Of a stretch of 37,700 nt of DNA, positions 1 through 35,621 are shown in pieces (the stretch's first letter is position 1; every line of letters starts with the position of its first letter). Below the pieces are notes generated by a model that worked only from the letters and a program-made list of their open reading frames with translations, was not told the origin of the DNA and did not search any database. Made by a program: the position numbers and the translations under genes. The stretch lies in IMG/VR virus record IMGVR_UViG_3300025764_000010, positions 1 through 37,700 of that record; one strand, given 5' to 3'. This DNA comes from a virus. Its lineage: Duplodnaviria; Caudoviricetes.

Positions 1-1
1 C

Positions 2-2548: not shown

Positions 2549-2552
2549 AATT

Positions 2553-2933: not shown

Positions 2934-2944
2934 TCGTAGGATAA

Positions 2945-5900
2945 ATGCAAAATCGATACCTGGCTTGGAAATACAAGCAAGAAGTAATTATTACAGATTC
3001 GAAAACTACCGAAGGGTATCAAGCTTCCCTCTCACTAAATTACAAGCCAGGTATGAGGGGTGATTTCAGAGACATACGCTTTTCTGACAAACTCGGTAAC
3101 CCTTTGTATTATTTTATAGACCCTCCTCAATTCGCAATATCTGCCCGTATATGGGTTAGACTCCCTGCTAATGATACATTAATTTACATGTATTGGGGGA
3201 ATGGGGGCGCTGCAGATGCTAGTAATGGTGCTGCGGTTTTTGAGTTTTGGGACGACTTTAACACCTTAAATCTAAAAACGCAGTGGACTGTAGTCGGGGG
3301 GGCTGCATCTGTAGCAAACTCGATTCTTACTTTATATAGCGATACGAAAAACTGTATGATTCGTAGTACTATAACTTACGGTGCAGAATACGCTCTCGAA
3401 TTTCGGATGAGACGCCACGGTGGAAATAAAACAGTATGTGGATACTGGAGCACATCTCTAAATATGGCATGTTGGGTCGGTACATATGCGCTTCACACCA
3501 TCAATTATAATGACCATATGTATACAAAAGATGGAGTCTCAGCCACCGGAGTAGACGATGGGGTAGACCGTGCGGGATCTACATATTATATTTATGGGAT
3601 TGTAAATGCTGCGAATGCACCTATATTCACGGTTAATTATGAATACCGGGGCACCGTCCTATTAACGCCTCCATCGGGCGATTTACCGATTGGGTTTTAC
3701 TCCGAAATAGCAAAAACATTAGAAATTGATTGGGTAAGAGTTAGAAAATATGAAACTGCTAAACCAGGAATGACACTGGGAAAAAGATGGACGACAAATC
3801 CAAAAACATATCCATGGTTTGACATGCTCGATGGAGTGTCAACTACCGCAATGTCAACCGATGTTGTATGCAAAGATACAACCAGTTGTTTAGCTACTAC
3901 TGAAATGAGCGCGATTACTTTATTGAGGCAAAGGAAATATTATAGACCTGAAAACCGGACCGCGTATAATGGATGGAAATATAAAGGAGATATTAAGGTC
4001 GTTTCGCATGGTGTTGATCAGGCTTCTAATATCCTGCCTGATTTATCAGGGAATGGTAATAATGGTACAATGTCTAATGTGGGGTTGACTGCTGATAATT
4101 TAGGGAATCCATACGGGGCAATGTCGTTTAATGGTATTGATAGTTTAGTAAGTGGTGCACATTCTGATAGTTTAACTATGGGATTATCAGACTTTTCAAT
4201 CCATGCAGTTGTATACCCTGAAAATGTTACTGGCGCTGGATCGACGGCTAAAATGATAATTGATAAAAAATATGAGGATACTAATAATGCTGGATACTAC
4301 TTAAGAATCGAAAATGGAAAATCAACATTTAAAATTGCAAACGGAACAACATCTTATTCACGGGCAAGCAACACTACACTCTCTATAAATACATGGTATG
4401 TTCTTACAGTTGTAGCTAACAGAACAGGAAACTTGTTATTTTACACAAATGGAACTCTAGATCGAATTGTTGATATGTCGGCGACTTCGGGATGGAATTT
4501 AAACAGTAGCGATAGGTTTGGAATAGGTCGCACGGTATCAACTGCGCTTGATCAGTTTGATGGCTTAATCCGAGAAATAATAATATATAAACGTGCTCTT
4601 TCACAAGCCGAAGTGACAGCACTATATAATAATCAGTCAGTCTCCTCTACCGGTCTAGTAGCCGAATGGCAACCATCGGCTTTAGTGCCCGTACGAATTG
4701 ACCTGAAGCCACTCCCTGGCATGACATTAGATTGCAGAGATATCAGATTTTCAGATCCACATAATAAAAAACTCCCATATTACGTTGAATATAACGCCGC
4801 GGCTGGATTTTATTATTGTTTTGTATCAAATCCAACTCAGTGTAAAACGATCCATATATATTACGGAAATGCTGTTTCTAAATCTGAAAGCAACACTTCG
4901 GTTATTAGTACAGTGGATGTAAATGACAATATTAAATTTTATAACCCTGACGTAAAAGGGGCTTACAGTCGATGGAAATATAGAGGAAATATACACATCA
5001 ATACTGAGTCTGGACCCGCAACCGTTCAAATTCCTTTTTATCCTGGGATGGCCGCCGATGGAAGAGACATCCGTTTTTCAGACGTCAATGGGAAAAAGTT
5101 GTCTTATTATCTAGACCCTGATGGAATTCCATCACGTGTTTTTATATTTGATGTGGAACGACAGACACGTGGTTCAATGATCCATTTTTATTACGGGCAT
5201 GCTGTTTCCAAGTCTGAAAGTGATATATCTGTGAGAACTGGATCCGGTGAAGGACAAAATCAATATTTTCAAGTGTTATCCTCAGGGAAATTAAATAAAT
5301 GGAAATATAAGGGTGATCTTGAAATAGACTCCCTTACCCTGGGGGATATTAAAGTCCCTGTTAATATCCCCCTCCTTCCTGGCATGGCAACCGATGGAAG
5401 GGATATCAGATTTTCAGACACGAAGGGAAATGAGTTATCTTACTACATCGACTCGTTAGTACAGACAAATTATGCAATTGCGACTTACCATAATACCCCA
5501 GGCCCAGACTCGGCTTACTGGATCGGTGCTGACTCCACTGGCTACTGGATGTTTTCCGGCGGACATGCAACCAGATTCACCCAGACCGGCACAATTAAAC
5601 GGGTTAGATTTTATGCAACAAATGTATCAGCACTCGATACATTCAAAATTACGATTTGGTCAAAAAACGAATCAACTGGGCTATATACACTTGTCAGCAT
5701 AACTGCAAATTTAAAAACATCAATTGCAGACGGATATAACGATATAGATCTTTCTAATGAAAATGTGTCAGTTACCGAAGGAATGAGTTTTGGGATAATT
5801 TTAGTGAGTACAGGGGCGCACACAGCCTTTATTGCTTCGTCCTCAAGTGGATCTTGGATATTCGGAGAAACAAAATATGCTCGGTCTCCTACGTATACGG

Positions 5901-8900
5901 ATTATGATTGGTCGGCCCAAAGCGAATCTGGAACTGGTAGAACTATCGACATTGATTTTCTAATGGAATCTCCTGATATAATTTTTATAGGCGACTCTAT
6001 ACTCTCAGGTTTTCCACTGGCGACAGCATATACTGATCAGCCAGTATTCGGTGGGTCTGCCAATTCAACGTCAATCCCGTATAAATTAAGAACACTATCC
6101 GGATTAACTTATCAAAATCTGGGGATAAATGGTAATGGATATCCAGATCTTAATACCAGATTCGCAAAAGACATCACCGGTAAACATCCTAAATATGTTG
6201 TGATAGAGGGTGGTCTAAATAATTTAATGTATGGGACTGCAACGACTGGAGCTATCATTTCAGGCACGGAACTCCAGATAACATCCGCCCAAGCCGCCGG
6301 TATTGTCCCTGTAGTCGTTTTAGTTACACCTGCGTACGGAACAAATTATCTCAATGCATCCCAGAGTATGCAGGCAGATGCGGTAAATAATGCGATTATA
6401 GCATATCACGCACTGAATCCCGATTTTATCATAGTGGATGCAAGGGAAGATCTGGGATCATATAATGCACAAACGGGTTGGGCTCTAGATTCACAGTACA
6501 ATTCCAACTCAGATAATGTCCATCTGAATGAAGCGGGGAACGCGGTAGTCGCTCAAAAAATACATGATTCTATACTGGGCTTCCATCCGTCTATAATATT
6601 CTCTTGCTGGGTTCTATGGCCTGCAAACACATCCAAAATTAATTTTTATTATGGTAAGCACAATGTAATCTCAAAAAGTAATGTTTCTGCTTTTAGTGGG
6701 CTTTTGACTGGATATCCTGATTTTTTACCCGCAATCGAGATAGATGGTATTTATCGCAAATGGAAATATAAAGGCGATATTTCAATTACAAACGAAACAA
6801 TCGACGGAGAACAGATCCAGATTCGAATTCCATTTTATCCAGGGATGGCAGTTGATGGGAGAGACATCAGATTTTCTGACACGAAGGGAAATGAGTTATC
6901 TTACTACATTGAATCTTTGATATCAAATGTTTTCATATGTTGGGTCAAATGCACTGTCGGAATTTCAACAATTAATTTTTATTATGGTAATGGTTTGGTT
7001 CTCTCTAGAAGTAACCCCTCAAATGTTTTTGATTTTTGGGATGATTTCTTAACTTTGGATTCCGGGGTATGGTCCACGTTTTCGGGGACACCTACTGCAT
7101 CTAACAGTACCGCTGTGTTGGGTGGAACGGCAACCACAGCAACACGCAGCATAAGAACTTTTGGGAATGATACGATATGTGAAATGAAAATGTATCACCC
7201 TGTCGGGAATAAATCATTGTGTGGGTATTGGGGCGTTGGCAACTTAAGGGAGGTCTGGGAAGGTGGATATGGGTCATTTAATAACGATTATATGCACACA
7301 TACAACGGATCTACACAGACCAATACATCAAGCGGAGTCGACCGCGGCGGATCTACATATTATATTTATGGAATAGCATACCTGTCCACGGGTCCATTAT
7401 ATTACGTTGATTATGGATATGTAGGACAAATTACCACCAATTTGCCTACCGGAAATCTCCCGATTGCATTGTACAGTAATGCCAATTTTGGTAATGTAGT
7501 AGTTGATTGGGTAAGGGTTCGAAAATATTCAATGAACACTACTCAAGTGTTGAGGCATTCACCGCAATTAAATAATCCGATGCCATATATTAATGATAGG
7601 AAAACCAAAACCGTTAGACATTACCTAGCAAAAACAACGTTAGATTATTATGCCGTTCCGTATTCAAACACCGTTTTAAACCATGCTCCCCAATTAAATA
7701 CCACAAGTTATTATAGAGAACCTAGTCCAAATATTATAAGTAGACATGCCCCACAATCCCAGTCTACTCACTATTATTTCGATTATATTAGTATCGGGGC
7801 TTACACTGAAATGCATGGCGGGGAACCGACATTTGTAGAGCGCGTAGAATTAAGTCAATTCTCTCTTATTTCAGTGGATATATCAAGGTCTGTCAACGAT
7901 GCATATATTCAACTGAGTGGAGAGTTTGCAAATGATATGGTTCCGTACGAGGGAGCAATTGTAAAATATTATACAAACGATATAAACGAAGTTAAAACTT
8001 TAGTATTCATAGGAAAAGTTGTAGCTAATAGTCCAACGATTGGATATATGGGAACCACTGTTAATATGATTGCTACTGACAATTCCAGAAATTTGATAGT
8101 GCAACATATTAATTGGAATCACCAAGTGATCTATCTTTCAGACGAAATACCGACATGGTCACAGTGGATAACTGAAATAATATCTACTCAAAACACAGGT
8201 GTTGTAGCTGAAAAAATAATAGATGTTCGTACCCAAAATAAGCAGTTTGTTTTTGACCCCAAAACTACTCGATTCGAAGCTATTAAAAAAATAGCTGGAT
8301 ATTGTAACTATGTACTCAACATAAAACCTAAAATGTATGGGGCTGTAATGCTGCCAGCGTTTTATGCTGCTCCTCCTGAACAAATTGATTCTAATGTAAA
8401 TGGTTTTGATCTACCCCAGCCGGTTGAATTTAATTGGCCGGATTCAACCATTATTGACAAACCTACTATCACAAACGACATTGAAGAAAAATATAATACA
8501 GTTGTTGTATATGGCGTAATCACAAGCTCAGGGGAAACTACCGTGGCTGTCGCTTATACACCATCCGTAGAATATGGGGATATCAAACCACGTGAATTTA
8601 CAATCAATGACAATTCAATCGAAGAAAAGAGCAGCACTGCTGAAATCGAAGCTATAAAATGGTTATTATATTTTTCTTCTCCGAGGGCAACAGTTACGGT
8701 TCGGTTGACCAAACGTTTAGATTTCGAGTTATATCAACGAATACGTTTTGGAAGTGGTTTTGCTAAAGCTTTACAGGACCTAACGTTTACCGAGCAACTT
8801 AAACATGTTGTAGCATATGACCCAAGGGATGAGAGTAATACGAAACATATTGTAGACGTGTCTGGGGTTCCACGTCCGCAGTGGCTTAGAGTTAATGAAA

Positions 8901-9193
8901 TTAAATATCATAAGGAAAATATAGACGAATACATTGAAATAAAAGCCATTACTGATTTCATTTATTCAGTTGAAGACGCCACGGTGAATTATCCATATTC
9001 TACATATATAAGTCCGGGGTATATAAAACCGGTATTAGACGATTCAACGAGTATGACACAGTCTATAGTGAGTAATGCTATAGACAAACAACTTTCCCCG
9101 GAGATATGCACGGTTATATCCATTTCAACTGATGAGAGCACCGCTGTAGTCCAAACCCAAAGTGGAAAACTTATTACGGTGAGACTAAAATGA
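2945..9193 (+). CDS. Giant tail adhesin/hub protein: 5 DUF2341-like modules, LamG/ConA-like domain, SGNH/GDSL hydrolase, C-terminal tail-hub-like region
   Basis: Five WKY(K/R)...(R)DIRFSD...YYG units. LamG motifs DLSGNGNNGT and FDGLIREIIIYKRALSQAEV. SGNH blocks IFIGDS, NLGING, EGGLNN and DNVHLNEAG. Confidence 0.85.
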   Translation: MQNRYLAWKYKQEVIITDSKTTEGYQASLSLNYKPGMRGDFRDIRFSDKLGNPLYYFIDPPQFAISARIWVRLPANDTLIYMYWGNGGAADASNGAAVFEFWDDFNTLNLKTQWTVVGGAASVANSILTLYSDTKNCMIRSTITYGAEYALEFRMRRHGGNKTVCGYWSTSLNMACWVGTYALHTINYNDHMYTKDGVSATGVDDGVDRAGSTYYIYGIVNAANAPIFTVNYEYRGTVLLTPPSGDLPIGFYSEIAKTLEIDWVRVRKYETAKPGMTLGKRWTTNPKTYPWFDMLDGVSTTAMSTDVVCKDTTSCLATTEMSAITLLRQRKYYRPENRTAYNGWKYKGDIKVVSHGVDQASNILPDLSGNGNNGTMSNVGLTADNLGNPYGAMSFNGIDSLVSGAHSDSLTMGLSDFSIHAVVYPENVTGAGSTAKMIIDKKYEDTNNAGYYLRIENGKSTFKIANGTTSYSRASNTTLSINTWYVLTVVANRTGNLLFYTNGTLDRIVDMSATSGWNLNSSDRFGIGRTVSTALDQFDGLIREIIIYKRALSQAEVTALYNNQSVSSTGLVAEWQPSALVPVRIDLKPLPGMTLDCRDIRFSDPHNKKLPYYVEYNAAAGFYYCFVSNPTQCKTIHIYYGNAVSKSESNTSVISTVDVNDNIKFYNPDVKGAYSRWKYRGNIHINTESGPATVQIPFYPGMAADGRDIRFSDVNGKKLSYYLDPDGIPSRVFIFDVERQTRGSMIHFYYGHAVSKSESDISVRTGSGEGQNQYFQVLSSGKLNKWKYKGDLEIDSLTLGDIKVPVNIPLLPGMATDGRDIRFSDTKGNELSYYIDSLVQTNYAIATYHNTPGPDSAYWIGADSTGYWMFSGGHATRFTQTGTIKRVRFYATNVSALDTFKITIWSKNESTGLYTLVSITANLKTSIADGYNDIDLSNENVSVTEGMSFGIILVSTGAHTAFIASSSSGSWIFGETKYARSPTYTDYDWSAQSESGTGRTIDIDFLMESPDIIFIGDSILSGFPLATAYTDQPVFGGSANSTSIPYKLRTLSGLTYQNLGINGNGYPDLNTRFAKDITGKHPKYVVIEGGLNNLMYGTATTGAIISGTELQITSAQAAGIVPVVVLVTPAYGTNYLNASQSMQADAVNNAIIAYHALNPDFIIVDAREDLGSYNAQTGWALDSQYNSNSDNVHLNEAGNAVVAQKIHDSILGFHPSIIFSCWVLWPANTSKINFYYGKHNVISKSNVSAFSGLLTGYPDFLPAIEIDGIYRKWKYKGDISITNETIDGEQIQIRIPFYPGMAVDGRDIRFSDTKGNELSYYIESLISNVFICWVKCTVGISTINFYYGNGLVLSRSNPSNVFDFWDDFLTLDSGVWSTFSGTPTASNSTAVLGGTATTATRSIRTFGNDTICEMKMYHPVGNKSLCGYWGVGNLREVWEGGYGSFNNDYMHTYNGSTQTNTSSGVDRGGSTYYIYGIAYLSTGPLYYVDYGYVGQITTNLPTGNLPIALYSNANFGNVVVDWVRVRKYSMNTTQVLRHSPQLNNPMPYINDRKTKTVRHYLAKTTLDYYAVPYSNTVLNHAPQLNTTSYYREPSPNIISRHAPQSQSTHYYFDYISIGAYTEMHGGEPTFVERVELSQFSLISVDISRSVNDAYIQLSGEFANDMVPYEGAIVKYYTNDINEVKTLVFIGKVVANSPTIGYMGTTVNMIATDNSRNLIVQHINWNHQVIYLSDEIPTWSQWITEIISTQNTGVVAEKIIDVRTQNKQFVFDPKTTRFEAIKKIAGYCNYVLNIKPKMYGAVMLPAFYAAPPEQIDSNVNGFDLPQPVEFNWPDSTIIDKPTITNDIEEKYNTVVVYGVITSSGETTVAVAYTPSVEYGDIKPREFTINDNSIEEKSSTAEIEAIKWLLYFSSPRATVTVRLTKRLDFELYQRIRFGSGFAKALQDLTFTEQLKHVVAYDPRDESNTKHIVDVSGVPRPQWLRVNEIKYHKENIDEYIEIKAITDFIYSVEDATVNYPYSTYISPGYIKPVLDDSTSMTQSIVSNAIDKQLSPEICTVISISTDESTAVVQTQSGKLITVRLK

Positions 9194-10701
9194 CCACGGT
9201 TACAGTTGATGGTGACGGATCCGGAGATTATAACTGTACGGGGGTCGATGACCAAAATGTAATTAATTCTGCGTTGGAGTGGGCTTATACAGACGGTATT
9301 GATTCAGATCCGTCAACTGTGTATTTAAATGGTCCGTGTTCGTATTTAATATCAAATCAATTATATTTCGGGTCCAATACAATTCTCACGGGTGATCCAA
9401 CTGCGACTATTAAAGTTCAGGATTATACATGCGGAAATAACATTCCTTACGGATCACCGGGGGCATCGTGCGTTTTCCCTGATGGGAAATGTGTTATGGC
9501 ACAGATGCCTGGTACAGTCCCGTCAAATGTTGAGATATTCGGTTTTGAAATAGACGGTAACTGTCAAAATCAATATACTAAATTGGGACTCGCCCACGGG
9601 GTACCATCTTCTGCTGGCTCAGGTGTCGAGCGAATGATCGGGTTTTTTGGGTCATCGACTGGTGCAAACGTAAACGGCGTAAAAGTTCACGATATGCACT
9701 TTCGCGATGCGTTTGGCGAATCATTGATCATTAGATTTGGTAAAAATATTCAGTTTTATAATAATAAATGTGAGAACCATCAGCACGAAACAGTTTATTA
9801 TATAGGAGTTGTTGGATCTGGAAACACTATTGATAATAACACGATTCAGGGAATATCCTCAGACTGTATAAGGTGTAGCAATTCTCAGGGAATTGACATT
9901 CATCATAATAGTCTTTCTTCGTATTTAGGACCAAACAACAACGGGGCCGCGTTGCATGGCCAGAGCGGTATTCAAATATGCAACGAATCAAATAAATCAA
10001 TCCTGACTAACTCGATCAATATCCACGATAATATAATTTCAGATCAAGGACTAGCAGGTATTTGGATAGATGACCAACTACGAACAGCGGGCAACACTTC
10101 ACAGAGTGTAACTATTTATAATAACATAATAACTGGGTGTGGGTGGAGTTGCTGGGCTAATTGGGCGTCTGGTATTTCGATCGGTCCCTGGGGTAACGGT
10201 ATTACTATCGAAGCAAATACGATCGATGGTTCCTACCAGGACGGTATTCAAATTTTAAGTGCGATTTCTGCGCCTTCTGCACACATTGTCAATATCAAAT
10301 ATAATAATATAATAAATACACTCGGGAAAAGAAGCGGTTCATCGGGAAGTTCGTTAACTGATGTCGGCTATGGAATATACAGTGCGGTTCTTGACACTGT
10401 AACGATCGTAAATTCCAATAATAATTATTTTATTGGCAATCTAAAAGGAGATTATTTAGGTCAAATCAATACTATTACAGATGAACTTGTAAACGGGCAG
10501 CTGGGCTTGATGATCCCAACGAAGACCAGATATATGTTTTATAGACTTCAGGAAGCAGTTACGGGCGATACTGCTCTTATTTATCCCGCGCCAGGTGGAG
10601 AATATTATCTACTTAAACTGACTCAGAGTGTTGCGAAAGGGGATCAAATGCTTGCTATTCCTGGGGCGAAGGGGGATTTTTACGGGGTGTCAACGAACTG
10701 A
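9190..10701 (+). CDS. Right-handed beta-helix (pectin-lyase-like) protein, disaggregatase-related; probable tail-associated depolymerase
   Basis: N-terminus VDGDGSGDYNCTGVDDQNVINSAL...TVYLNGP...GSNTILTGD...IDGN resembles Methanosarcina disaggregatase-family proteins as I recall them. Many Asn-ladder coils. ATGA-coupled to the adhesin gene. Confidence 0.75.
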   Translation: MTTVTVDGDGSGDYNCTGVDDQNVINSALEWAYTDGIDSDPSTVYLNGPCSYLISNQLYFGSNTILTGDPTATIKVQDYTCGNNIPYGSPGASCVFPDGKCVMAQMPGTVPSNVEIFGFEIDGNCQNQYTKLGLAHGVPSSAGSGVERMIGFFGSSTGANVNGVKVHDMHFRDAFGESLIIRFGKNIQFYNNKCENHQHETVYYIGVVGSGNTIDNNTIQGISSDCIRCSNSQGIDIHHNSLSSYLGPNNNGAALHGQSGIQICNESNKSILTNSINIHDNIISDQGLAGIWIDDQLRTAGNTSQSVTIYNNIITGCGWSCWANWASGISIGPWGNGITIEANTIDGSYQDGIQILSAISAPSAHIVNIKYNNIINTLGKRSGSSGSSLTDVGYGIYSAVLDTVTIVNSNNNYFIGNLKGDYLGQINTITDELVNGQLGLMIPTKTRYMFYRLQEAVTGDTALIYPAPGGEYYLLKLTQSVAKGDQMLAIPGAKGDFYGVSTN

Positions 10702-14336: not shown

Positions 14337-14996
14337 GTGACATCAAAAACCCGGATATTTAAATTAATGGTCATAACGCTTTTGGTTATTTTAACTGGAT
14401 GCATGGCCGCAGAAGCAGGGAATAATAGGCAATCAGTAGTAGACGAGGCATATTACTCGTATTCTGGAGTTCATGGGTCTTCATTATCCAGCCCAGTAAC
14501 CTGGAACTACTTGTTAAGTAACGTTGGAGCGTATTGGCATACGAGAGATTATTGGACAGGTCGATATCCCGTTGCCGGTACTATGACAAATGCAAAGGAC
14601 CCCATACTAAGGAACTACTTCATAAGCGGAAACATACCAGCATACGGTCGTTATGGCGGATCCCTGAGGGGAGCACAATGCAAATATTTTGCCAACCTGG
14701 TATTATACCGAGCAGGAGTATCTAACGTTGATCCGATGCCAACCTACAACACCATGCAGGCAAACAGTAAAGCCGGAAATTATGCCAAAGCAGGAGACGT
14801 ACTCTTTATAAATGCATACCACACCGCGATAGTGACAAAAGTTACGGGAAGTTCTAGCGTTGGAACGGTTACTTCAGCCGAAGTGATTGATTCAAACTGG
14901 GTCGGTGGAACTGGTAATGAAATGATAGGAAAGCACACCTTGAGTGGATTAACATCATGGAGGGTATGGAAAGGAGTATCGTATTATAACACCTAA
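14337..14996 (+). CDS. Secreted CHAP/NlpC-P60-like cysteine hydrolase
   Basis: Signal peptide; AQCKYFA (Cys), KAGDVLF...YHTAIV (His) and VIDSNW motifs in CHAP order. Confidence 0.65.
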   Translation: MTSKTRIFKLMVITLLVILTGCMAAEAGNNRQSVVDEAYYSYSGVHGSSLSSPVTWNYLLSNVGAYWHTRDYWTGRYPVAGTMTNAKDPILRNYFISGNIPAYGRYGGSLRGAQCKYFANLVLYRAGVSNVDPMPTYNTMQANSKAGNYAKAGDVLFINAYHTAIVTKVTGSSSVGTVTSAEVIDSNWVGGTGNEMIGKHTLSGLTSWRVWKGVSYYNT

Positions 14997-15267: not shown

Positions 15268-15429
15268 ATGTCCTGCCCATACTCCCCATCCTCTAAAAAA
15301 TTAGTGAAATGTGAGCTATATAAAGAAAATTCTGCTGGTTGCAACGGATCAGATGATCCCGATTTTTGCGGAAAATTCCGAACGTTGGAAGAGTATTTGA
15401 TGCCGCTCGGCCCCGTTTATCACAAATAG
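15268..15429 (+). CDS. Small Cys-containing protein (53 aa)
   Basis: GAGGT RBS; MSCPYSPSSKKLVKC...GC...FCGKFR; followed by a T-rich terminator. Confidence 0.5.
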   Translation: MSCPYSPSSKKLVKCELYKENSAGCNGSDDPDFCGKFRTLEEYLMPLGPVYHK

Positions 15430-15492
15430 CCAAAGCCTCTTGGCTTCCGGTTTTTCTTCTTTTTTAATTTTACACAGTTCGAACTCCCCGCC

Positions 15493-15534
15493 CTTGTTTC
15501 CATTGTTAACACTGTGAACAATGATATAATATTA
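15493..15534 (+). promoter_or_regulatory. Palindromic operator plus AT box upstream of the putative lysis cassette
   Basis: cttgtttcCATTGTTaacactgtgAACAATGatataatatta; near-identical to 35470-35511. Confidence 0.75.
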
Positions 15535-15578
15535 CAACATTAATAGAATGATCACGACCCTGAGAAAACAGGGTTATC

Positions 15579-16814
15579 ATGAAAATAATGGAGACGAATA
15601 TGTCAACTCTAGACCTGGCCCCAATTACAAATGGACATCAAACGATTTCGAAAAATATACAGGATGCACTATCATTGGTGGGTGAAAATCAAAGATATGA
15701 GGCACTCCATCTGGCAGCAGGAAACTATCTAATAGATGATTCAATCAAAAAATGTGCTTATAGTATCTTCGGAATAAATTCCGGCTCTGATATTTCCGGA
15801 TGCCAAGACGAAAACGGACACCCTACTACTTTTTTTCAACTGATGCAAGATGCGCCGGTTAAACCATTTGGATGCGACATTGCTGTTTTTGGACCGACAG
15901 AGACCATCGGGGAAAATATAACATTTTCAAATATCGCATATGATGGAAACTGTACCTCCGTCGGTGGGAAACAAAAATACCTGAAAGCGATTACCTGTCC
16001 TGGGAATCATGTTTTGGCAGGAAAAGAGACCGGAAAGAGTTGTCATAATTTCATATCCGCGGTCAGGGCATCGTTTAAAGATTGCGAATTTGGGAATATC
16101 CACGTTTCGAATACAGCAGGTGATGCCTTCCGAACAACCCAGTGGCTGAAGAGTTCGGGGCTTAATATACATGATTGGGTAATTAACCTATGCGGGCACA
16201 GTGGAGTTCTTTTAGAAAATACAACCGACTCTATAGTCGAGAATATCAAGGTCGTTACGAGGGCTAATGGGGCGTTCAGGTGCCAGAATGGATGTTCGGA
16301 TCTGGAAATTAAGAACATCCGTGCAATTGGAACCTCTTTGAATTACAATAGCGGTTTTCAAGTCAGTGGTAATGATCTAAAAATATCAAACTGTACCGTC
16401 GATAGTATGATGGGTTGCGGGATTGAGGTAATTGGACTCGATAATACGGGGATTGAAATTTCAGACTGTGAACTACTGAATAACGGTAGCTTTGCTCTTA
16501 CTAATGATTATGGAGTCGCAGGAATTCTAGTAAATGGTGCTAACGTCCTGATAAAAAACTGTCTTTTTAACGGGAATTATCAGAATGCAATCTCTACCGG
16601 AATATATAGTCCGGACGGAAAACGGTTTACAAAATCTGGATTCGTTATTACAACTGAAAATAATACAATTATTGACACAAAACCGTCTAAGTTTCCAGCA
16701 ACTGGAAATGGGAAGCATATCGCCAACGTCCTGTCTGGACATACGATTACATCTAAAAATAATAGTTTCCTTCCGGAAAAGAACTTTACTTATAATGTTA
16801 AGTTTGTCGATTAA
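15579..16814 (+). CDS. Right-handed beta-helix protein; putative endolysin-like polysaccharide lyase/hydrolase
   Basis: IQDALSLV...LHLAAGNYLID, ITFSNIAYDGN and repeated Asn/Ile coils. No signal peptide. Upstream of small membrane proteins. Confidence 0.7.
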   Translation: MKIMETNMSTLDLAPITNGHQTISKNIQDALSLVGENQRYEALHLAAGNYLIDDSIKKCAYSIFGINSGSDISGCQDENGHPTTFFQLMQDAPVKPFGCDIAVFGPTETIGENITFSNIAYDGNCTSVGGKQKYLKAITCPGNHVLAGKETGKSCHNFISAVRASFKDCEFGNIHVSNTAGDAFRTTQWLKSSGLNIHDWVINLCGHSGVLLENTTDSIVENIKVVTRANGAFRCQNGCSDLEIKNIRAIGTSLNYNSGFQVSGNDLKISNCTVDSMMGCGIEVIGLDNTGIEISDCELLNNGSFALTNDYGVAGILVNGANVLIKNCLFNGNYQNAISTGIYSPDGKRFTKSGFVITTENNTIIDTKPSKFPATGNGKHIANVLSGHTITSKNNSFLPEKNFTYNVKFVD

Positions 16815-16859
16815 TTACGTCAATGTTTCAAATTTTTTCATCTCTTTGAACCCCGATAA

Positions 16860-17162
16860 ATCCCGCAGCCCCCTACTACCGGAACTGGAACTGTAACCGG
16901 AATATTTATTGACAACGCAACCGGTGCGCCCATCGTAGGCGCAGAAGTACCGATAATTGATGCAAACGGAAACACGGTGACTAGTGTCACTGACGGAAAC
17001 GGAAATTTTCAAATTGAACTGCCAGCTGGTGAAAATAAAGTGAATTATATTACTTTCAATGGATCCACAATCAACATTGACGAAATCGTCTTCAGTGTCA
17101 GTATTGGAGAAATGTACGATATCGGGACTGTCGGAGTCGATAGGGTTTTATCAAGGCGGTAA
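16860..17162 (+). pseudogene. Carboxypeptidase-regulatory-like (beta-sandwich) domain without a canonical start
   Basis: GTVTGIFIDNATGAPIVGAEVPI...VTDGNGNFQIELPAG begins upstream of the GTG at 16977. In-frame TAA at 16857. Confidence 0.55.
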
Positions 17163-17163
17163 A

Positions 17164-17343
17164 ATGTGTCAGACTCACGCACGGTTTGAGATTGAAAAAC
17201 AGCAACATGAGATCGTAACAATCTCTTTGGAAAAACGCTGTCGGGTGTGTGATGATCTGGAAATCGACAATGATTTTTCCCTGTTCGGTAGATGTCCTAA
17301 AACAGGAAAGCTACACGCTTTTGATCACATTTGTATATTATGA
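17164..17343 (+). CDS. Small Cys/His (Zn-binding?) protein
   Basis: CRVC...RC...HIC; ATG just after the previous stop. Confidence 0.55.
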   Translation: MCQTHARFEIEKQQHEIVTISLEKRCRVCDDLEIDNDFSLFGRCPKTGKLHAFDHICIL

Positions 17344-17372
17344 TTGTCAAAAAATAAAAAGAGGCAATAATT

Positions 17373-17720
17373 ATGGCGATTAATTTTGTAGTATTGAACG
17401 AATGGCTGACGTTTTTTATTGGCGCGCTGGTCGCCATCTTGACGGCATATACAACCATGCGGGCACAGGGGAAAATCACATATCCCGTGGCTTGGGTTGA
17501 AGCAGGAAAGGCAAAAATTGCTGATGGAGAAGAACAGATAAAAAAACTCACTGAGAACTGCACAATCGCTCAAGATGTTCTGGCAGTTACGGGTAACATA
17601 TCAGCTCAAGAATTGGGGTCAATCCTGACAGTTGCGGAAAAGTACTCAGTCGATGGATTCACCGCACTGGAAGCGCAGAATATCGGGATAATGCTAGTCG
17701 AAGCTGCAAAAAGCAAGTAA
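17373..17720 (+). CDS. N-terminal TM protein, holin-like candidate 1
   Basis: Single hydrophobic helix (WLTFFIGALVAILTAY); GAGG RBS; context. Confidence 0.55.
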   Translation: MAINFVVLNEWLTFFIGALVAILTAYTTMRAQGKITYPVAWVEAGKAKIADGEEQIKKLTENCTIAQDVLAVTGNISAQELGSILTVAEKYSVDGFTALEAQNIGIMLVEAAKSK

Positions 17721-17730
17721 GAGATGAAAA

Positions 17731-18159
17731 ATGACTGATGTCACAATCGATATCGAGGCCATTGGCTCCGTTATTGCCGGGATAGTATCTATTCTCGTTG
17801 CGATTTTTGGGTACCTCAAAACCAAAGGTTATATTGAGATTTGGAGGTCAAAACTCGCAATTCCAGCCGACGTTTCTATGGAACTCACGAAACATAATGG
17901 GGATGCACTTGCAAAACTTCAACTGTCTGATGAAATTATTGATATTTTACAGACACACGCATCGGATGACACGGGGATGATTGACCCGAGCAAACTTGTT
18001 AAAGTTCTGGATAATTATCAACGCATCCACGAACTAGTGACAATGAAACGTCTAATGACCGTGAACGAACAGAATGAAGTATGCGGGATAGTGTTTCAGA
18101 TTTTGGGGGATCACGGGACCACTGAAGAAACCGGATCTGATTTAAAAATACATAAATGA
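17731..18159 (+). CDS. N-terminal TM protein, holin-like candidate 2
   Basis: AIGSVIAGIVSILVAIFGYL followed by basic residues; context. Confidence 0.55.
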   Translation: MTDVTIDIEAIGSVIAGIVSILVAIFGYLKTKGYIEIWRSKLAIPADVSMELTKHNGDALAKLQLSDEIIDILQTHASDDTGMIDPSKLVKVLDNYQRIHELVTMKRLMTVNEQNEVCGIVFQILGDHGTTEETGSDLKIHK

Positions 18160-18262
18160 ATGGAAATCGAAGGGCGCAAACCCACATGCTTTAGCGGTGG
18201 GATAGCCCGTAAACTTCTCCATAGTAATATTTAAATAGATTAGATACGTATATTAGTATCAT

Positions 18263-18418
18263 ATGGTGAATACACATATAATTAATACAGCTAAGAACAG
18301 AACGTATGTTTATATACCTTCGTTTCTGCGAAAAATGTTCGATATAACAACAGAAAGCAAAGTCGATATAACAACAGATGGAAAAAGCATAATCATAACG
18401 CCAAAGAAAAAGGAATGA
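18263..18418 (+). CDS. AbrB/MazE/SpoVT-like DNA-binding protein (51 aa), not in ORF track
   Basis: MVNTHIINTAKNRTYVYIPSFLRKMFDITTESKVDITTDGKSIIITPKKKE fits the swapped-hairpin pattern (V-x-IP...R...I...V-x-I...DG..IIITP). Ends 4 nt before tnpB. Confidence 0.75.
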   Translation: MVNTHIINTAKNRTYVYIPSFLRKMFDITTESKVDITTDGKSIIITPKKKE

Positions 18419-18422
18419 GAAC

Positions 18423-19691
18423 ATGCGAAAAGGAAACTTGTTTAGAATCTATCCAAACGAAGAGCAAAAACAATTGCTTGAACAACATTTTGGTGCGATT
18501 AGATTCATCTATAACAAGCTCCTGCATACTAAAAGTACAGCGTATAGCCAGTGTAGATGCAGTATTTCTAAAAGAGATTTAGCTGACCATATACAGGTGC
18601 TTAAAGAGTGCTATCCTTGGCTCAACGATATTTCTGCTCATTCTCTTCTTTCGGCAAATAATAATTTAGATGTGGCATATCAACGGTTCTTCAAAGGACT
18701 CGGTGCATACCCAAAAGAACATAAGAAGAAAGACAACCATTTCTCATATCAGTATCCAGATGCTTATCAGATTAATCTCACAACATCGGAAGTTTACTTG
18801 CCCAATATTGGTTGGGTTAAAGTTGTCTTCCATAGAGATTTCTTTAGTCCAGAGTTCATAGAAAAGAATATGGTTGTCACGATTGTTAAGAACCAACGTA
18901 TTCTAAAACATAAAGATAATATTGCTTTTCTCCGTACATTAACAGTTTCACGGACAGCTACCGGAAAGTATCATATCAGTATTCTAACTGAAAATGGACT
19001 TGAACTTCCTGAAACTCAACCATATACTCAGTCCGATGTTCTCGGTATAGACCTTGGATTAAAAACATTCGCGGTTTGTTCAAATGGAGATACTATAGAG
19101 AACCCTAGTTTTCTCCGTGAATCGGAAGAACGGCTTATAATGCTACAGAAACGTGTAAGTAAGAAAGTTAAAGGTTCGAAGAATCGAAAGAAAGCCGTTC
19201 GTAAACTTGCCAAAACGCACGAGAAGATAGCTAACCAACGTAACGATTTTCAACACAACGTTTCATTGCAATTAGTACGCGAAAACCAAGCAATTGCATT
19301 GGAAACTTTGAATATCGATGGCATGAAGCAAAACCATTGTCTAGCGAAGTCAGTTGGAGACGTGGGTTGGTATAGCTTTTGTGTTAAAATAGAATATAAA
19401 GCAAAGTGGCAAGGTAAAACGGTTTTAAAGATAGGACAATGGGAAGCCTCCAGTAAAACTTGTCATGTTTGCAGTTATCATAATTCAGAATTAACACTCG
19501 GAGATAGGGAATGGCTTTGTCCCGAATGCAATACAATGCACGATAGAGACATTAATGCCGCTATCAATATCAAAAAATTCGCAATTAGAGATTATCAAAT
19601 TCCGGTAGGGACTACCGGTAAAGCCTATGGACTTGGAAAAAACGACATAACCGCCAAGAATGAAGTAGGAAGCCTCACAGCTTTAGCGTGA
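18423..19691 (+). CDS. tnpB: RNA-guided endonuclease TnpB
   Basis: N-terminal FRIYPNEEQ...FGAIRFIYN. RuvC residues GIDLG, ALETL and DRDINAA all intact. Zn ribbon CHVC/CPEC. Confidence 0.95.
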   Translation: MRKGNLFRIYPNEEQKQLLEQHFGAIRFIYNKLLHTKSTAYSQCRCSISKRDLADHIQVLKECYPWLNDISAHSLLSANNNLDVAYQRFFKGLGAYPKEHKKKDNHFSYQYPDAYQINLTTSEVYLPNIGWVKVVFHRDFFSPEFIEKNMVVTIVKNQRILKHKDNIAFLRTLTVSRTATGKYHISILTENGLELPETQPYTQSDVLGIDLGLKTFAVCSNGDTIENPSFLRESEERLIMLQKRVSKKVKGSKNRKKAVRKLAKTHEKIANQRNDFQHNVSLQLVRENQAIALETLNIDGMKQNHCLAKSVGDVGWYSFCVKIEYKAKWQGKTVLKIGQWEASSKTCHVCSYHNSELTLGDREWLCPECNTMHDRDINAAINIKKFAIRDYQIPVGTTGKAYGLGKNDITAKNEVGSLTALA

Positions 19692-19720
19692 GGTAGTTCA
19701 CCAACGAAAAGGGACAGATC
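19560..19720 (+). ncRNA. Probable TnpB omegaRNA (reRNA) with guide starting about 19702; 5' boundary uncertain
   Basis: Inferred from the known architecture in which the omegaRNA overlaps the tnpB 3' end and right-end hairpin. Confidence 0.55.
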
Positions 19721-24261: not shown

Positions 24262-24566
24262 TCAACTACCGCCAAACGAAATATTTACTTTCTTTTTTTC
24301 ATTTTACAGTTCCTGTATCCCTCGGGGATCTTGGGGGGATATTTCGGGGAAGACAATTGAGTGAACAACGGATTTAAGAAGAGTAAGCTCGGAGCGATAC
24401 GACCCACTCCAAAGCTGAAAACGAGAAACCTAACTCTAATAGGCTCCTTGACTTCTTATATTTTTCGCATATCTCAAATACAACGGTAAGTTACCGTCAT
24501 ATACTAGTAAATTGCACATAAAAGGTATATTAAATTAACGGACACTAAAATTCTAGCTGGGGTTTT

Positions 24567-24697
24567 CGGGGATATTTCTGGGATATCCTGGGATATTCGG
24601 GGATATTTCTGGGATATCCTGGGATATTCGGGGATATTTCTGGGATATCCTGGGATATTCGGGGATATTTCTGGGATATCCTGGGATATTCGGGGAT
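24567..24697. repeat. 4 perfect 31-bp tandem repeats (CGGGGATATTTCTGGGATATCCTGGGATATT), iteron/centromere-like
   Basis: Units start at 24567, 24598, 24629 and 24660, with a partial unit at 24691. Confidence 0.95.
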
Positions 24698-24969
24698 TCA
24701 TATCATTTTTAATATCTCTTCTTCGGTTTGCGAGTGTTTCACTTTTATATTTTCCAACACATATTTTTTAAATTCTGATTCAGTTAAAATTTCCTCTTCG
24801 AAATCCACTGATATAAAATGATATCCGACCCGGTCGCAATATGGGCACGTGCATTTGACATACATATCTTTTCCTCCTGAATATTAAGTATGTTTCGAGG
24901 AGGCAATATTTATTAGTTTTATTTTGTAAAAATGTACGAATGTTATGATGTTATATGAGTCAACTAATA

Positions 24970-25916: not shown

Positions 25917-26153
25917 GTGGATCGTTCTTTCGAGAATGAGAATATTGTAGAATGCGAGGATTTCGAGGGCGCTGCGTCTAGATACAGGGTAATCCGGAAA
26001 ACGAAAGTAAAGTGCGAAAAATGTCCGGCACATATTGTTATTAAAAATATGAAAGTTGGAAGTCCGGTAAAATGCCCAGGATGTAAAGCCGAATACATCA
26101 TAAAACAACAGATACAGTTTAAGACGGTCATTGAGCTAGTCGGTGTGTCCTGA
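25917..26153 (+). CDS. Small zinc-ribbon protein
   Basis: CEKC...CPGC; coupled to the next gene. Confidence 0.65.
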   Translation: MDRSFENENIVECEDFEGAASRYRVIRKTKVKCEKCPAHIVIKNMKVGSPVKCPGCKAEYIIKQQIQFKTVIELVGVS

Positions 26154-26968
26154 TGGTTTATACAATTGCAGCAAAGTCCATTAAGGAAGCACAATTTAAG
26201 GCTGTAAACTTCATAATAAACAAAGGTAAGTATGCGAAGGACCAGCGGAATGAAAAAGTAAAGTTTGTAAAAAACCTCCTGATTTCCATTGATGCGGACA
26301 ACTGCGAAATTTCCAAAGACCCGTTAACTGCCCGTTGTGGTCTAATATTCGGTGAAAATCTGATCACTGGCCAAAATCCTAAACTCGAAGTTGAAGCTGT
26401 TGATTCAGACGTTCAAGATCCCGAATATAGTTACGGTGCTGAAGCTCATAAAAATGATATGGTAGAGAAAATCATCAGTCTCCTGAAAGAGCATCCTGAG
26501 ACAAGGAGAGCCGTTATACCTCTTTTTAAGCCTGAACATGTTGGGAAAACTGACATTCCGTGCATGATAAACGTCGTTTTCGACGTCGAAGATGATTTCC
26601 TTAACCTGACAATTCTTGGCAGATCTAATGAAGATGTTATAGCCATGCAGAGTGACCTGAAGGGATTTGAGATATTCCTTCGCTGGGTGGCAGGGAGAAC
26701 GGGATATGATGCGGGAAGTATCCTATTACACGTTGTCAATGCGCATATCCGAATAAACTCAGAAGCAGACTTAATAAAAAAGATTCTAAGCGATGGATAT
26801 CGAATGAGTGGAGCACAGCTCGGAGCGCAACACAACGACGCCGCATCCACTCCTGAGGGTATAATACTCAATCCTTTTTCAATCTGTCGTGTGTGTTCAA
26901 AATTCGAAGACTGTAACTGCGAAAATGATAATGTAGGCGAGTGCTCTTGGTTTTCGGAGGGTGTTTAA
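26153..26968 (+). CDS. Thymidylate synthase / dCMP-(hydroxy)methylase family protein
   Basis: PETRRAVI, catalytic IPC, RSNEDVIAMQSD and NAHI motifs. Confidence 0.8.
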   Translation: MVYTIAAKSIKEAQFKAVNFIINKGKYAKDQRNEKVKFVKNLLISIDADNCEISKDPLTARCGLIFGENLITGQNPKLEVEAVDSDVQDPEYSYGAEAHKNDMVEKIISLLKEHPETRRAVIPLFKPEHVGKTDIPCMINVVFDVEDDFLNLTILGRSNEDVIAMQSDLKGFEIFLRWVAGRTGYDAGSILLHVVNAHIRINSEADLIKKILSDGYRMSGAQLGAQHNDAASTPEGIILNPFSICRVCSKFEDCNCENDNVGECSWFSEGV

Positions 26969-27993: not shown

Positions 27994-29576
27994 TGACCGA
28001 AGACATGACGTCATCTGAATGGCTGAGAAAGCGCTTTAATAAACTCCCTGAAAACAGCGTAGACGGGAAGATAAGCGTAGACGATGAATTGATATCCCTA
28101 ATTATTTCAAACCCCGACCTAGACACACATATAAATATAAATCCAGACCAGGTCGTTTATCCAGCGCTTGTTTATAAAAATTTAATTTTGTGCCTTGGTC
28201 TACTTGATGCAACAGATATTGAGAAAATAATTACGGTCTATGTTGGCGGTACTCTATGGGAACAAATGGACCATACAAGACGGAGGGAAGTAATATCAAA
28301 GGTTTTAGTCGATACTGAAGAAAAGCAGACAAAACCCAAGGACGAAACAAAAAAAGAAGATAGTGACTTTGACGAAAGCGATATTTCAGCAGAAGACAAA
28401 GAAAAGGCAAGGATCGAAGCGATTCGGATTTTACAGACAAGTGACCCAATAAAATATATTTTAGACACCGTGAACCAATATCACGCCGGTGACGCCAAAA
28501 CTGAAGAGGGTATATGTATTTCTATTGCGGGTCAGTCGTGCCTAAACACCGCTGGAATTCAGATAGCAGTTAATGGTGAAAGCGGAAGTGGGAAAAGCCA
28601 CGGTTTAAAAACCCATCTTCATTTAGTACCTTCGAAATATAAAATCGTAACTTCCCTTAGTGCAAAGGCCGCCTACTACATGCAAATGAAGCCAGGGACT
28701 ATAATATTTTCAGATGATACAGTGCCATCAGAGGATATGGAAGAAGTCATAAAAAGGGCAACAACAAACTATCAAGAATTTACGCAACACACAACGGTTA
28801 AAGACGGAAAAATAAATTATTATTTAATCCCGCCTAGAATAAATTGGTATCTTACAAGTGTTGATAGTGCAGTTTCCGAGCAGTTATTAAACCGGCAACT
28901 TACTTTCAATACTATAGACGATTTTTCCCAAAAGAACGCAATTTTTGAAATGCAGAAATTAGAGGCTCTGAGTGGAGAACTAGGCCTTCTTATTATAAAC
29001 GACGATGTTTTGACATGTCGCCGGATTTATGATATTATCAGGTCGAGAACATTTAAGGTGAAAATTCCGTTTGCAGATAGGATAGAACTTACTGATAAAT
29101 CAAACACTCGCACCTTCCCTCTATTTTTAGATATGATAAAAGGATACACTGTTTTCTTTCATGCACAGAGGGATACCGACGACGAAGGGTATTTACTCTC
29201 AACGGAAGGCGATTTTGAAAAAGCAAGGACATTGTTTGAATCACAGACCGAAGGTATCGTATCGAAACTCAACGAAAAAGAAAGGAAGGTAATTGATTAC
29301 ATCGGACAGCATCCACGCTGTACAATTGCCATAATAGCCAACGGGACAAAGTTTAGTTATGCGACTACGAGAACCCTACTAAAGGGCAGGAAGGACAGAC
29401 CGAGTGAAGGGCTTTTAGGAAAGGTAAAGGGATTGGAAATATCAGATGAAACACATACCGTTCACTCTGAACACGAAGGAACGAGTCTGAGCAAGAAGTC
29501 AGAATATTTCATCCTCAATGGAAAATACGATTACTGGAAAGGATTAAACAGTGGATTTATCATGCTCAAAAAGTGA
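27990..29576 (+). CDS. Replicative P-loop helicase/initiator with C-terminal winged helix
   Basis: Walker A GESGSGKS, IIFSDD and QLLNR. C-terminal LNEKERKVIDYI...TIAIIA..TKFSYATTR (wHTH-like). ATGA coupling. Confidence 0.75.
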   Translation: MMTEDMTSSEWLRKRFNKLPENSVDGKISVDDELISLIISNPDLDTHININPDQVVYPALVYKNLILCLGLLDATDIEKIITVYVGGTLWEQMDHTRRREVISKVLVDTEEKQTKPKDETKKEDSDFDESDISAEDKEKARIEAIRILQTSDPIKYILDTVNQYHAGDAKTEEGICISIAGQSCLNTAGIQIAVNGESGSGKSHGLKTHLHLVPSKYKIVTSLSAKAAYYMQMKPGTIIFSDDTVPSEDMEEVIKRATTNYQEFTQHTTVKDGKINYYLIPPRINWYLTSVDSAVSEQLLNRQLTFNTIDDFSQKNAIFEMQKLEALSGELGLLIINDDVLTCRRIYDIIRSRTFKVKIPFADRIELTDKSNTRTFPLFLDMIKGYTVFFHAQRDTDDEGYLLSTEGDFEKARTLFESQTEGIVSKLNEKERKVIDYIGQHPRCTIAIIANGTKFSYATTRTLLKGRKDRPSEGLLGKVKGLEISDETHTVHSEHEGTSLSKKSEYFILNGKYDYWKGLNSGFIMLKK

Positions 29577-29597
29577 TTTACCGCATCGGTTGTCATT

Positions 29598-29863
29598 TTT
29601 TACCACCTTTTACCGTATTTTTACCAAGCGGTTCGTGAACGGGAGACACTATTTTTCTATTTTTACCATTTTTACCATTTTACGGGAGAGAGAGAACGAG
29701 AGAAAAAAAGGGAGAAAATAAATAATTTAGAACAGTAGATAATAGATGCCTCTTAGATATGGTAAAAATGGTAAAAATATATAATAATAATAAATAAATA
29801 AGTATACTGTCAATGGTTTTGATTTTTACCAATGTGGTAAAAATACGGTAAAAGGTGGTAAAA
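29598..29863. other. Putative replication origin: nested perfect inverted repeats built of TTTTACC units
   Basis: 29-bp IR at 29598-29626/29835-29863 and 21-bp IR at 29658-29678/29759-29779. AT-rich tract at 29777-29800. Directly follows the helicase gene. Confidence 0.7.
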
Positions 29864-30002
29864 CAGCATCGGGTGATACAAATGCCAGTTTCTATACAAC
29901 AACCATCTAACACTGAAAAGAATAAAAAAGAAACATTCCTGATGAAATCACGTGAACAAATAACATCTTTCATCATCGTTTGTAATGTAGGAGGAAAAGT
30001 AA

Positions 30003-30236
30003 ATGTTGATGAGCTCTAACATATCCCTTCTCCTTAAAACTCCATCAATGGGATTTCACATCCCTGAAGAAACGATGGAGCCAAATCTCAAAAAAGATAT
30101 ACTCAATTTCCTCCGTATACATCCCGGCACGAACGCCGTCGAAGCCGCTCAGTCGTTCAGAATGAAGTGGGCGGGGTATAAGGCTAGCCACACGGAGGCC
30201 GAGCTGGTAGAGTATTTTAAAATTTGCATGGAATAA
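30003..30236 (+). CDS. Hypothetical protein
   Basis: AGGAGG RBS. Confidence 0.55.
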   Translation: MLMSSNISLLLKTPSMGFHIPEETMEPNLKKDILNFLRIHPGTNAVEAAQSFRMKWAGYKASHTEAELVEYFKICME

Positions 30237-30252
30237 AAATGGGCGGGATAAA

Positions 30253-31074
30253 ATGAAACGATGTACGAAATGTGGGATTGAGAAGGAGGAGAGCGAATTT
30301 TATCGAGATAAATCGAAAATAGACGGACTTAGGTCAAATTGTAAACAATGCGCGGCAGAATCTGATCGTTTATATCGAGTAGAAAATAAAGACTCGATTT
30401 CAATTAAAAATAGAGAATATGAACTAGAAAACCGAGCCGTTCTAAACGAGCTTGATAATGAAAAACGGGCGAGGGCCCCGGAAAAAGAGGCTAACCGACT
30501 AAAAGCATGGCGACATAAACATAAAGAACGTGTTCGTGAATCCGAAATGAGATCGAGCTTAAAATCGGAGCATCCAATGAGACCAACTGCTATCACAGAC
30601 CCCATTCTTATGGGAAAGGCATATGATATGAAGCAAACCGGTATGTGGGCTCGTGACATCGCGGAAAAACTATCCGTGGAGAGCGGGGAGAAAATAACAC
30701 ATATCTCCGTAGCGCGTTTATTCAACGGTCTAAAAGAAGAGCCTATACCAGAACTGTTAGAATCTGATTATCCGTCTTTACAAGATATTAGTTATCTATT
30801 CAACATCAAATTTAAAAAAGAAAAAACGGCGACTGTAATAAGATATCATAATACTACAATGCGACGTGACCTACTCCAGCGGATTTTAACTAAATTTTAT
30901 AAAAAGAACTTCACTTATTACGACGTTAAATATGAATGCAACGATCGAGATACGGATACTGCCTTTTTCAATCATTGGGAATATCTTTTACACTTTCATT
31001 ATATTGAACATATCACAGACACCGAATTTGGATTCTGTGATATTGTAAAACGGTGGCATATGAAATTGTTGTGA
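30253..31074 (+). CDS. Zn-finger plus HTH-like protein
   Basis: KRCTKCG..K..SEF...CKQC finger; GMWARDIAEKLS...SVAR HTH-like segment. Confidence 0.6.
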   Translation: MKRCTKCGIEKEESEFYRDKSKIDGLRSNCKQCAAESDRLYRVENKDSISIKNREYELENRAVLNELDNEKRARAPEKEANRLKAWRHKHKERVRESEMRSSLKSEHPMRPTAITDPILMGKAYDMKQTGMWARDIAEKLSVESGEKITHISVARLFNGLKEEPIPELLESDYPSLQDISYLFNIKFKKEKTATVIRYHNTTMRRDLLQRILTKFYKKNFTYYDVKYECNDRDTDTAFFNHWEYLLHFHYIEHITDTEFGFCDIVKRWHMKLL

Positions 31075-31151
31075 AAGTCAATGTAAGTAAGAAATGCACT
31101 CAAACTAAGAGGATAGACGATTTTGAAATTTGTATGCGATAAAAATAGAAG

Positions 31152-31601: not shown

Positions 31602-31652
31602 TTAGCACATCACAGCGTTAACGTTATAAAATATTAAATCGGTGATTAAAAC

Positions 31653-35469: not shown

Positions 35470-35597
35470 CTTGTTTTCATTGTTCACAGTGTTAACAATC
35501 ATATAATATTAAATGTATCATATAATAGTTGCAAACTCTCCCAAAATACATACATTTTTATCCAAAAACTATACATTTTATATTGTTCACAGTGTTA
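35470..35597 (+). promoter_or_regulatory. Two copies of the palindromic late operator upstream of the portal gene
   Basis: CATTGTTCACAGTGTTAACAAT at 35478 and ATTGTTCACAGTGTTA at 35582. Confidence 0.75.
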
Positions 35598-35621
35598 TTA
35601 ATCATAATTATAGAGGAATAA

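Follow-up and report, generated by a model that had tools for sequence, protein, structure and literature searches.

The window analysed here is the whole 37.7-kb record of a tailed virus (IMG/VR record IMGVR_UViG_3300025764_000010; 37,700 nucleotides). Within it, behind a palindromic promoter-region repeat, lies an operon in which a gene for a disaggregatase-related β-helix protein stands upstream of genes for two small membrane proteins, TM1 and TM2. The following features make up this operon:

15468..15549, + strand: 82-nt promoter-region repeat, 74% identical to positions 35445-35526, holding a 21-bp palindrome at 15502-15522
15600..16814, + strand: gene for a signal-less, right-handed β-helix protein of 404 amino acids (open reading frame open from 15579), diverged and disaggregatase-related, predicted methanochondroitin depolymerase
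16860..17162, + strand: start-less, stop-free frame for a CarboxypepD_reg-like β-sandwich with a Pro/Thr linker (E 1e-8)
17164..17343, + strand: gene for a Cys-rich protein of 59 amino acids, with homologues behind the β-helix gene in G001, G010, L186, L187 and L200
17373..17720, + strand: TM1, 115 amino acids, one N-terminal membrane helix and a helical tail, holin candidate
17731..18159, + strand: TM2, 142 amino acids, a paralogue of TM1, candidate holin or holin regulator

The enzyme start at 15600 was favoured over 15579 because of the homologues and a ribosome-binding site. Since a contig from an independent study is identical to the window over 15400-17518 (0 differences), the layout is no assembly artefact. 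An initial annotation, made from the sequence alone, had described two small proteins with N-terminal membrane helices that closely follow the β-helix gene; the helices are there, but the gap between enzyme gene and TM1 measures 558 bp and holds two frames, the second of which, the Cys-rich gene, had been overlooked. The first of these, at 16860-17162, is likely a decayed gene in the slot where relatives have a binding-type partner, and an intact homologue adjoins the β-helix in L199. Assembly error was rejected as the cause of this broken frame, given the contig match of the independent study, and a read-through tail of the enzyme is unlikely, as four homologues stop at the same residue.

Consistent with the initial annotation, the enzyme is a β-helix protein that lacks a signal peptide. 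It matches Pfam Beta_helix (E 3e-8), and a structure model built with 6 sequences (predicted local distance difference test, pLDDT, 79.7; predicted template modelling score, pTM, 0.85) forms a single right-handed β-helix from residue 1 to about 400 and shows neither an anchor nor a trimerisation domain outside the helix. The maximum 15-residue hydropathy in its first 50 residues was 0.64, compared with 2.2-2.7 for TM1 and TM2. A hydrophobic N-terminus is present in most cellular members of the family and not in the viral stand-alone ones. The best fold matches were AlgE4 (Z 36.3), an alginate epimerase/lyase (33.0), a tailspike (32.0) and RbmB (31.6); as far as the model goes, the β-helix fold alone cannot tell an enzyme from a spike. 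A sequence search of the PDB with the window enzyme as single query gave no match, and no longer fused form of it was found, which is weak evidence. As direct query, the enzyme or its close alignment retrieved no viral or genome loci, and a scan of metagenomes yielded 4 identical copies plus 1 weak match.

Kinship to disaggregatase became apparent through the relatives. All eight relatives scanned, namely seven viral stand-alone copies and P0006, pass the disaggregatase profile PF08480 (E 4e-16 to 9e-80); P0006 is 52% identical to the window enzyme, and P0005 misses the profile as the window copy does (no match at E 0.01). The window enzyme also aligns over 269 amino acids (28% identity, E 5e-9) with a cellular protein, L164, that combines a β-helix with three DNRLRE repeats, which we take to be the architecture of disaggregatase; L164 is likened to the disaggregatase of Methanosarcina mazei (Dag) by this architecture only.

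Groove residues were compared in an alignment of 58 domains, 50 of them grouped. In all 50 grouped sequences H200, N/D223 and R227 are invariant, and position 175 is Asp in 49/50. Position 201 is acidic in 42 of the 44 sequences outside the window clade (25/25 cellular, 10/11 viral stand-alone and 7/8 tail-type). Among 52-80% identical homologues with intact frames, D175, R178, H200, R221, N223, R227 and Q254 are invariant, as is E276 in the same groove line. In a profile alignment, the rungs with the conserved residues match the segment of AlgE4 around Y149-D173, presumably the groove that holds its active site. Judged from these alignments, the active site of the window enzyme appears mostly kept, and the loss of one acid may change or abolish its activity. 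The glycan depolymerase foreseen in the initial annotation, which had suggested a comparison with disaggregatase and polysaccharide lyases, is made plausible by the family kinship, the AlgE4 match and the relatives that pass PF08480, but not by the profile cut-off or by the acid at position 201 in the window copy itself. In L020 (7816-9768) and its relatives, enzyme and partner gene have a common C-terminal motif of about 35 residues (identified by eye), possibly the assembly module of a two-chain enzyme.

In both TM1 and TM2, basic residues come after a single hydrophobic helix at the N-terminus, and the two proteins are paralogous (probability 83.6%, E 8e-6). When TM2 was compared with a run of an independent study, 33 of the 38 differences listed fell at third codon positions, a pattern that points to purifying selection. 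Fold searches with TM1 were uninformative, with a best Z of 5.8 and no Foldseek match under E 0.001. A third membrane family is paired with TM2 in L191, L192 and L200; its comparison with TM1 showed no relationship (probability 9.5%). The TM1 homologues at L013, L014, L016, L017 and L018 seem to start at ACG behind a ribosome-binding site, possibly as a translational throttle.

To what extent these genes belong together was assessed across 24 viral records with a signal-less stand-alone enzyme, many of them fragments and several close kin. Small membrane genes lie directly downstream of the enzyme in 13 of these records; they belong to the TM1/TM2 family in 11 (G000, G001, G015, G242-G247, G249 and G251) and are unrelated to it in 2 (G019 and G250). 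Their placement could not be read in three (G240, G241 and G248), and none of the 24 has a membrane gene both behind the enzyme and before the putative portal gene (35622-36872 in the window, a label that rests on the position after the large terminase in relatives; the protein has no Pfam or PHROG match). Searching with the enzyme as query yielded 19 loci, comprising 6 known records, 1 of the secreted type and 12 new ones. Of the new records, 9 have membrane genes within 1.5 kb, 2 do not and 1 ends at the gene, so that linkage holds in 9/11 readable enzyme-picked records, or in 7/9 when three near-identical ones are collapsed; the membrane genes belong to the TM1/TM2 family in 8 of the 9 linked records and to another in 1.

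Four complete genomes with the cassette are without this portal family, and the cassette therefore spans virus lineages. Of 18 cellular genomes that have a related portal, one (G017) carries a stand-alone enzyme near the portal, G132 carries a weak one at a distance, and 2 carry TM1. The cassettes also carry further genes. A papain-family C1 protease, a candidate S-layer protease, is the first gene behind the palindrome in the cassette run of G001 (L001 7468-8217), and a secreted hydrolase of the GH46 chitosanase family ends the cassette of G019 (L146 16559-17407, E 9e-37). In two viruses a signal-less DNRLRE/CBM96 gene lies right behind the enzyme. A DUF1699 gene was often observed just upstream of the stand-alone β-helix (G001, G004, G005, G010, L186-L189, L193, L194 and L200).

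Besides the copy before the enzyme gene, the palindrome occurs at these places:

35479..35499: second copy, upstream of the putative portal operon, exact reverse complement of 15502-15522
35582..35602: third copy, some 20 nt upstream of the start of the putative portal gene, at a position conserved in relatives
31608..31622: fourth copy, degenerate, upstream of the gene in front of the small terminase

With at most 2 mismatches to the consensus GTT(A/C)AC(A/G)(C/G)(T/C)GT(T/G)AAC, the window holds 5 sites, whereas 5 shuffled versions averaged 0.0. Of 18 records scanned, 11 have the palindrome ending 9-11 nt upstream of the capsid operon's first gene, which has no family match and is followed by a major head protein; the palindrome also precedes the small terminase and the TM1/portal operon. 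It stands before the enzyme gene in G000, G008, G012, G017 and G019, and with one gene between in G001. A scan of IMG/VR with the motif only gave four matches, all before terminase, portal, capsid or enzyme operons. The palindrome is absent or unplaced in G015, in three proviruses of small-genome hosts and in most enzyme-picked records. By eye, TATA-like words lie directly upstream of the palindrome in some cases and directly downstream in others. The palindrome in the repeat at 15468-15549 is likely the binding site of a viral late regulator, and its placement across the records marks it as a putative lineage-specific site of a morphogenesis regulon. The initial annotation had seen the same palindrome before the portal operon, which holds true as far as the positional portal label goes. 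Its role as a lysis-specific operator was rejected, because the palindrome precedes morphogenesis operons generally; repression or activation at the site is presumed.

A FastTree phylogeny built from 59 domains over 393 columns and rooted at the midpoint (domains below 330 residues and 12 later loci left out) placed the window clade, with a branch length of 0.88, inside a stand-alone clade (support 0.952). It also gave a cellular group and a tail-type clade of nine (support 0.978) that includes a second protein of the window:

9190..10701, + strand: gene for a tail-type disaggregatase-related β-helix protein of 503 amino acids (PF08480 E 2.5e-12), behind the gene for a 2082-amino-acid tail protein

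This protein equals the N-terminal domain of a 2038-amino-acid tail protein in G001 (45% identity) and is a candidate entry depolymerase. Given that a separate tail-type paralogue exists, a spike role is less needed for the stand-alone copy. A third kind of viral copy is secreted and membrane-anchored, in an accessory module. At 28182-33277 of G001, and also in G009, G014 and L201, a TraG/VirB4-like ATPase (E 2e-5) occurs within virus records together with multi-pass membrane genes and a secreted β-helix, which suggests a conjugation-like or surface module. The stand-alone copy of G008 nests among cellular proteins (support 0.975) and is 52% identical to the DNRLRE protein; it has no signal peptide and is found where the tail module ends, downstream of the palindrome. 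This enzyme is likely an independent recapture of a host enzyme.

Gene relationships indicate that the host is likely Methanosarcina. Relatives of the putative portal occur in a Methanosalsum genome and a Methanosarcinales metagenome-assembled genome, and in 26 of 221 sampled Methanosarcinales genomes. Among 14 control genomes, PF08480 matches were found only in Methanosarcina acetivorans; the Methanosalsum genome has none. The eight best matches of the tnpB gene of the window are large genomes with 5-13 PF08480 matches each. No CRISPR (clustered regularly interspaced short palindromic repeats) spacer match was seen in a search in which tnpB predominated and 2 candidates were scored for each genome. 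Source runs with the stretch are peat and soil metagenomes, with no RNA dataset among the listed runs that contain it. Pfam and PHROG scans of the window identified a tape measure protein, the 2082-amino-acid tail protein, small and large terminases, a methyltransferase and tnpB. As no capsid gene was detected among the window proteins, the window is probably a fragment.

According to a review (PMC12369344), methanochondroitin can reach a thickness of 170 nm in Type I Methanosarcina, gives a cohesion likened to that of a Gram-positive wall, and shields inner cells from the virus MetSV; the genes for its biosynthesis are unknown, and it is degraded by disaggregatase, an enzyme secreted by the host. 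Against this background we favour, with moderate confidence, the explanation that the operon is an exit cassette, in which a holin would release a methanochondroitin depolymerase from a likely Methanosarcina host. This explanation builds on gene content, predicted fold, kinship, the absent export signal, the repeated linkage and the shared palindrome; we infer the host, late timing, substrate, hole formation and the order of events. The palindrome would link the cassette with the operons for terminase, portal and capsid, with the TM1 gene moving between two such operons. The enzyme would accumulate in the cytoplasm late in infection and, because it has no signal, would reach the methanochondroitin layer only once the membrane is breached. 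TM1 may open the membrane as a holin would, TM2 acting as its partner or regulating it; once released, the enzyme would cut the methanochondroitin wall and the aggregate matrix. Proteases beside some cassettes are candidates for passing the S-layer. Whether this extends to a modular lysis system in tailed viruses of Methanosarcina, covering at least two portal lineages, we consider evenly balanced; host disaggregatases would have been captured repeatedly and stripped of their export signal, the holins would be interchangeable, and the tail copy would serve entry.

Several observations weigh against an exit cassette. Neither TM1 nor TM2 matches a holin family in Pfam, PHROG or NCBIfam. In favour of a holin role, though no more than leads, are their neighbours in a protein language model (Atlas): one cluster labelled 'putative phage holin' (0.81) and others in which LL-H holins make up 11-12% of the members (0.83-0.84). 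Atlas scores near 0.8 are reached by a third of shuffled proteins. In 8 of the 24 records (G004, G005, G008, G010, G012, G013, G017 and G020, with the record of G013 ending 0.66 kb past the enzyme) TM1 stands before the portal instead, and in the fragments G240 and G241 the enzyme is not followed by a membrane gene. With TM1 as query, 13 of 14 further loci have it directly before the putative portal, the remaining one behind a β-helix, and the provirus record G018 (60% complete) has TM1 and no enzyme. The fifth occurrence of the palindrome in the window, at 16459, falls within coding sequence, and the strict palindrome is present in 4 of 12 enzyme-picked records, none of those sites being seen before the enzyme gene. 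The enzyme may instead be a dispersal factor only, spilled by lysis of other cause and loosening the aggregate, which would free progeny to reach shielded neighbours, while TM1 and TM2 would be membrane anchors for head assembly or packaging; that cells within aggregates resist MetSV (PMC12369344) fits such a role. We nevertheless regard this as unlikely, since TM1/TM2-family genes stand behind the enzyme in the 11 records named above and no record has both placements. In addition, G019 and G000/G001 lack TM1 before the portal, and unrelated membrane genes replace TM1/TM2 behind the enzyme in G019 and G250.

Other points concern the enzyme itself. Position 201 is S, C or A in 6/6 members of the window clade (S in the window copy), which sits on the long branch. 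The window copy misses the PF08480 cut-off and, unlike its relatives, has neither the C-terminal motif nor an intact partner gene, the partner frame being decayed, and substrates are not established for most cellular PF08480 proteins. Possibly, then, the family is one of exit enzymes in which the window clade has lost or changed catalysis, towards glycan binding or another glycan (e.g., S-layer glycans). The invariance of the seven groove residues and of E276 across the 52-80% identical homologues speaks against such a change, which we consider somewhat less probable again than a role in dispersal. Lastly, the β-helix might be an accessory tail spike of the virion for entry through the matrix. 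The fold is common to tailspikes (Z 32 for the tailspike vs 36 for the top match), the enzyme gene is directly behind the tail module in G008, G012 and G017, and the partner domain occurs in tail proteins too (E 3e-18). This is the least probable of the three alternatives: the same genomes hold a distinct tail-type clade, the model has nothing beyond the helix for anchoring or trimerisation, and in the window a distance of 4.9 kb separates the enzyme from the tail genes, with a palindrome of its own in front of it and the membrane genes grouped with it. Overall, what the initial annotation observed is confirmed, and its interpretation is partly supported. The proposed holin-endolysin analogue has the membrane-gene linkage in 13/24 records in its favour and synteny in the enzyme-picked relatives, but neither a holin family match nor the TM1-picked relatives, where the portal is the usual neighbour.

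The closest known cellular counterparts of the enzyme are Dag and the PF08480/PF06848 proteins, with a homologous β-helix and the same groove residues except at position 201. Some viral relatives encode a DNRLRE module, as Dag does, DNRLRE being a disaggregatase motif related to CBM96 (PMC9971899). Unlike Dag, the window enzyme is virus-encoded, has no signal peptide and no DNRLRE repeats, and is 404 rather than about 1100 amino acids long. Phage holin-endolysin cassettes with single-helix holins (e.g., the LL-H family PF09682) likewise place a signal-less enzyme, whose action on the wall is predicted in the present case, beside small interchangeable membrane proteins in a morphogenesis regulon, a putative one in the window; here, in contrast, the enzyme is a polysaccharide-type β-helix and not a peptidoglycan hydrolase, there is no holin family match, and the host is an archaeon with an S-layer. 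Among archaeal viruses, PeiW, PeiP and PeiR of Methanobacteriales viruses are wall-degrading enzymes that, as described in PMC10791045, are proposed to need a holin. They are peptidases acting on pseudomurein, and neither their pseudomurein-binding repeats nor their cysteine-peptidase (endoisopeptidase) domain was found in the window, in agreement with the difference drawn in the initial annotation. The top structural matches are the mannuronan epimerases AlgE4/AlgE6, the lyase RbmB and tailspike depolymerases; uronic-acid polymers are the substrates of the best-matching cellular proteins. Identities are 14-18%, and the fold does not fix substrate or chemistry. RbmB is reported to use a Lys base (PMC12993940), which is not matched in the window enzyme.

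We did not find such a cassette described in the literature searched; the Medvedeva 2023 compendium, the Dag gene paper and supplements lay outside its scope and may bear on novelty. Disaggregatase and viruses were found together only in the review cited above (PMC12369344), and the available text of PMC10791045, PMC12596118, PMC9796341 and PMC13573593 names no such system. A 2024 review states in its available text that no archaeal holin had been characterised (PMC10791045), and a lytic protein was reported as detectable in only 10.9% of 129 archaeal double-stranded DNA viruses (PMC12596118).

Other observations were made around the cassette and in its relatives. An IS605-type tnpB element (18161-19702) lies directly behind TM2; it is missing in run X5, and the insertion is therefore recent. 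Upstream of the cassette, 14337-14996 encodes a signal-peptide protein with a weak CHAP match (E 2e-4, below the cut-off), and in run X5 this slot is either bypassed or rearranged. The segments 24557-24711 and 29598-29863, with a 10/11-nt tandem array and with perfect inverted repeats of 29 nt and 26 nt in nested arrangement, possibly form an origin or regulatory region. A thymidylate-synthase-like gene at 26153-26968 has a 72% counterpart in G001. Genes resembling type IV CRISPR-type (Csf-like) effectors were noticed by eye in the 1-7500 region of L020 and in L013 (virus records G015 and G008).

The cassette is a real feature, and its proposed role is directly testable. How tailed archaeal viruses leave cells that have neither murein nor pseudomurein is an open question, for which the operon offers named, small and expressible candidates for both halves of a lysis system. 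An active single-domain enzyme, if this is what the gene encodes, could serve for dispersing or lysing Methanosarcina aggregates and for research on methanochondroitin. If the reading as a modular, repeatedly captured lysis system is true, TM1 and TM2 would represent the first testable holin family of archaeal viruses, and the enzyme would be the first glycan-cutting endolysin in archaea.

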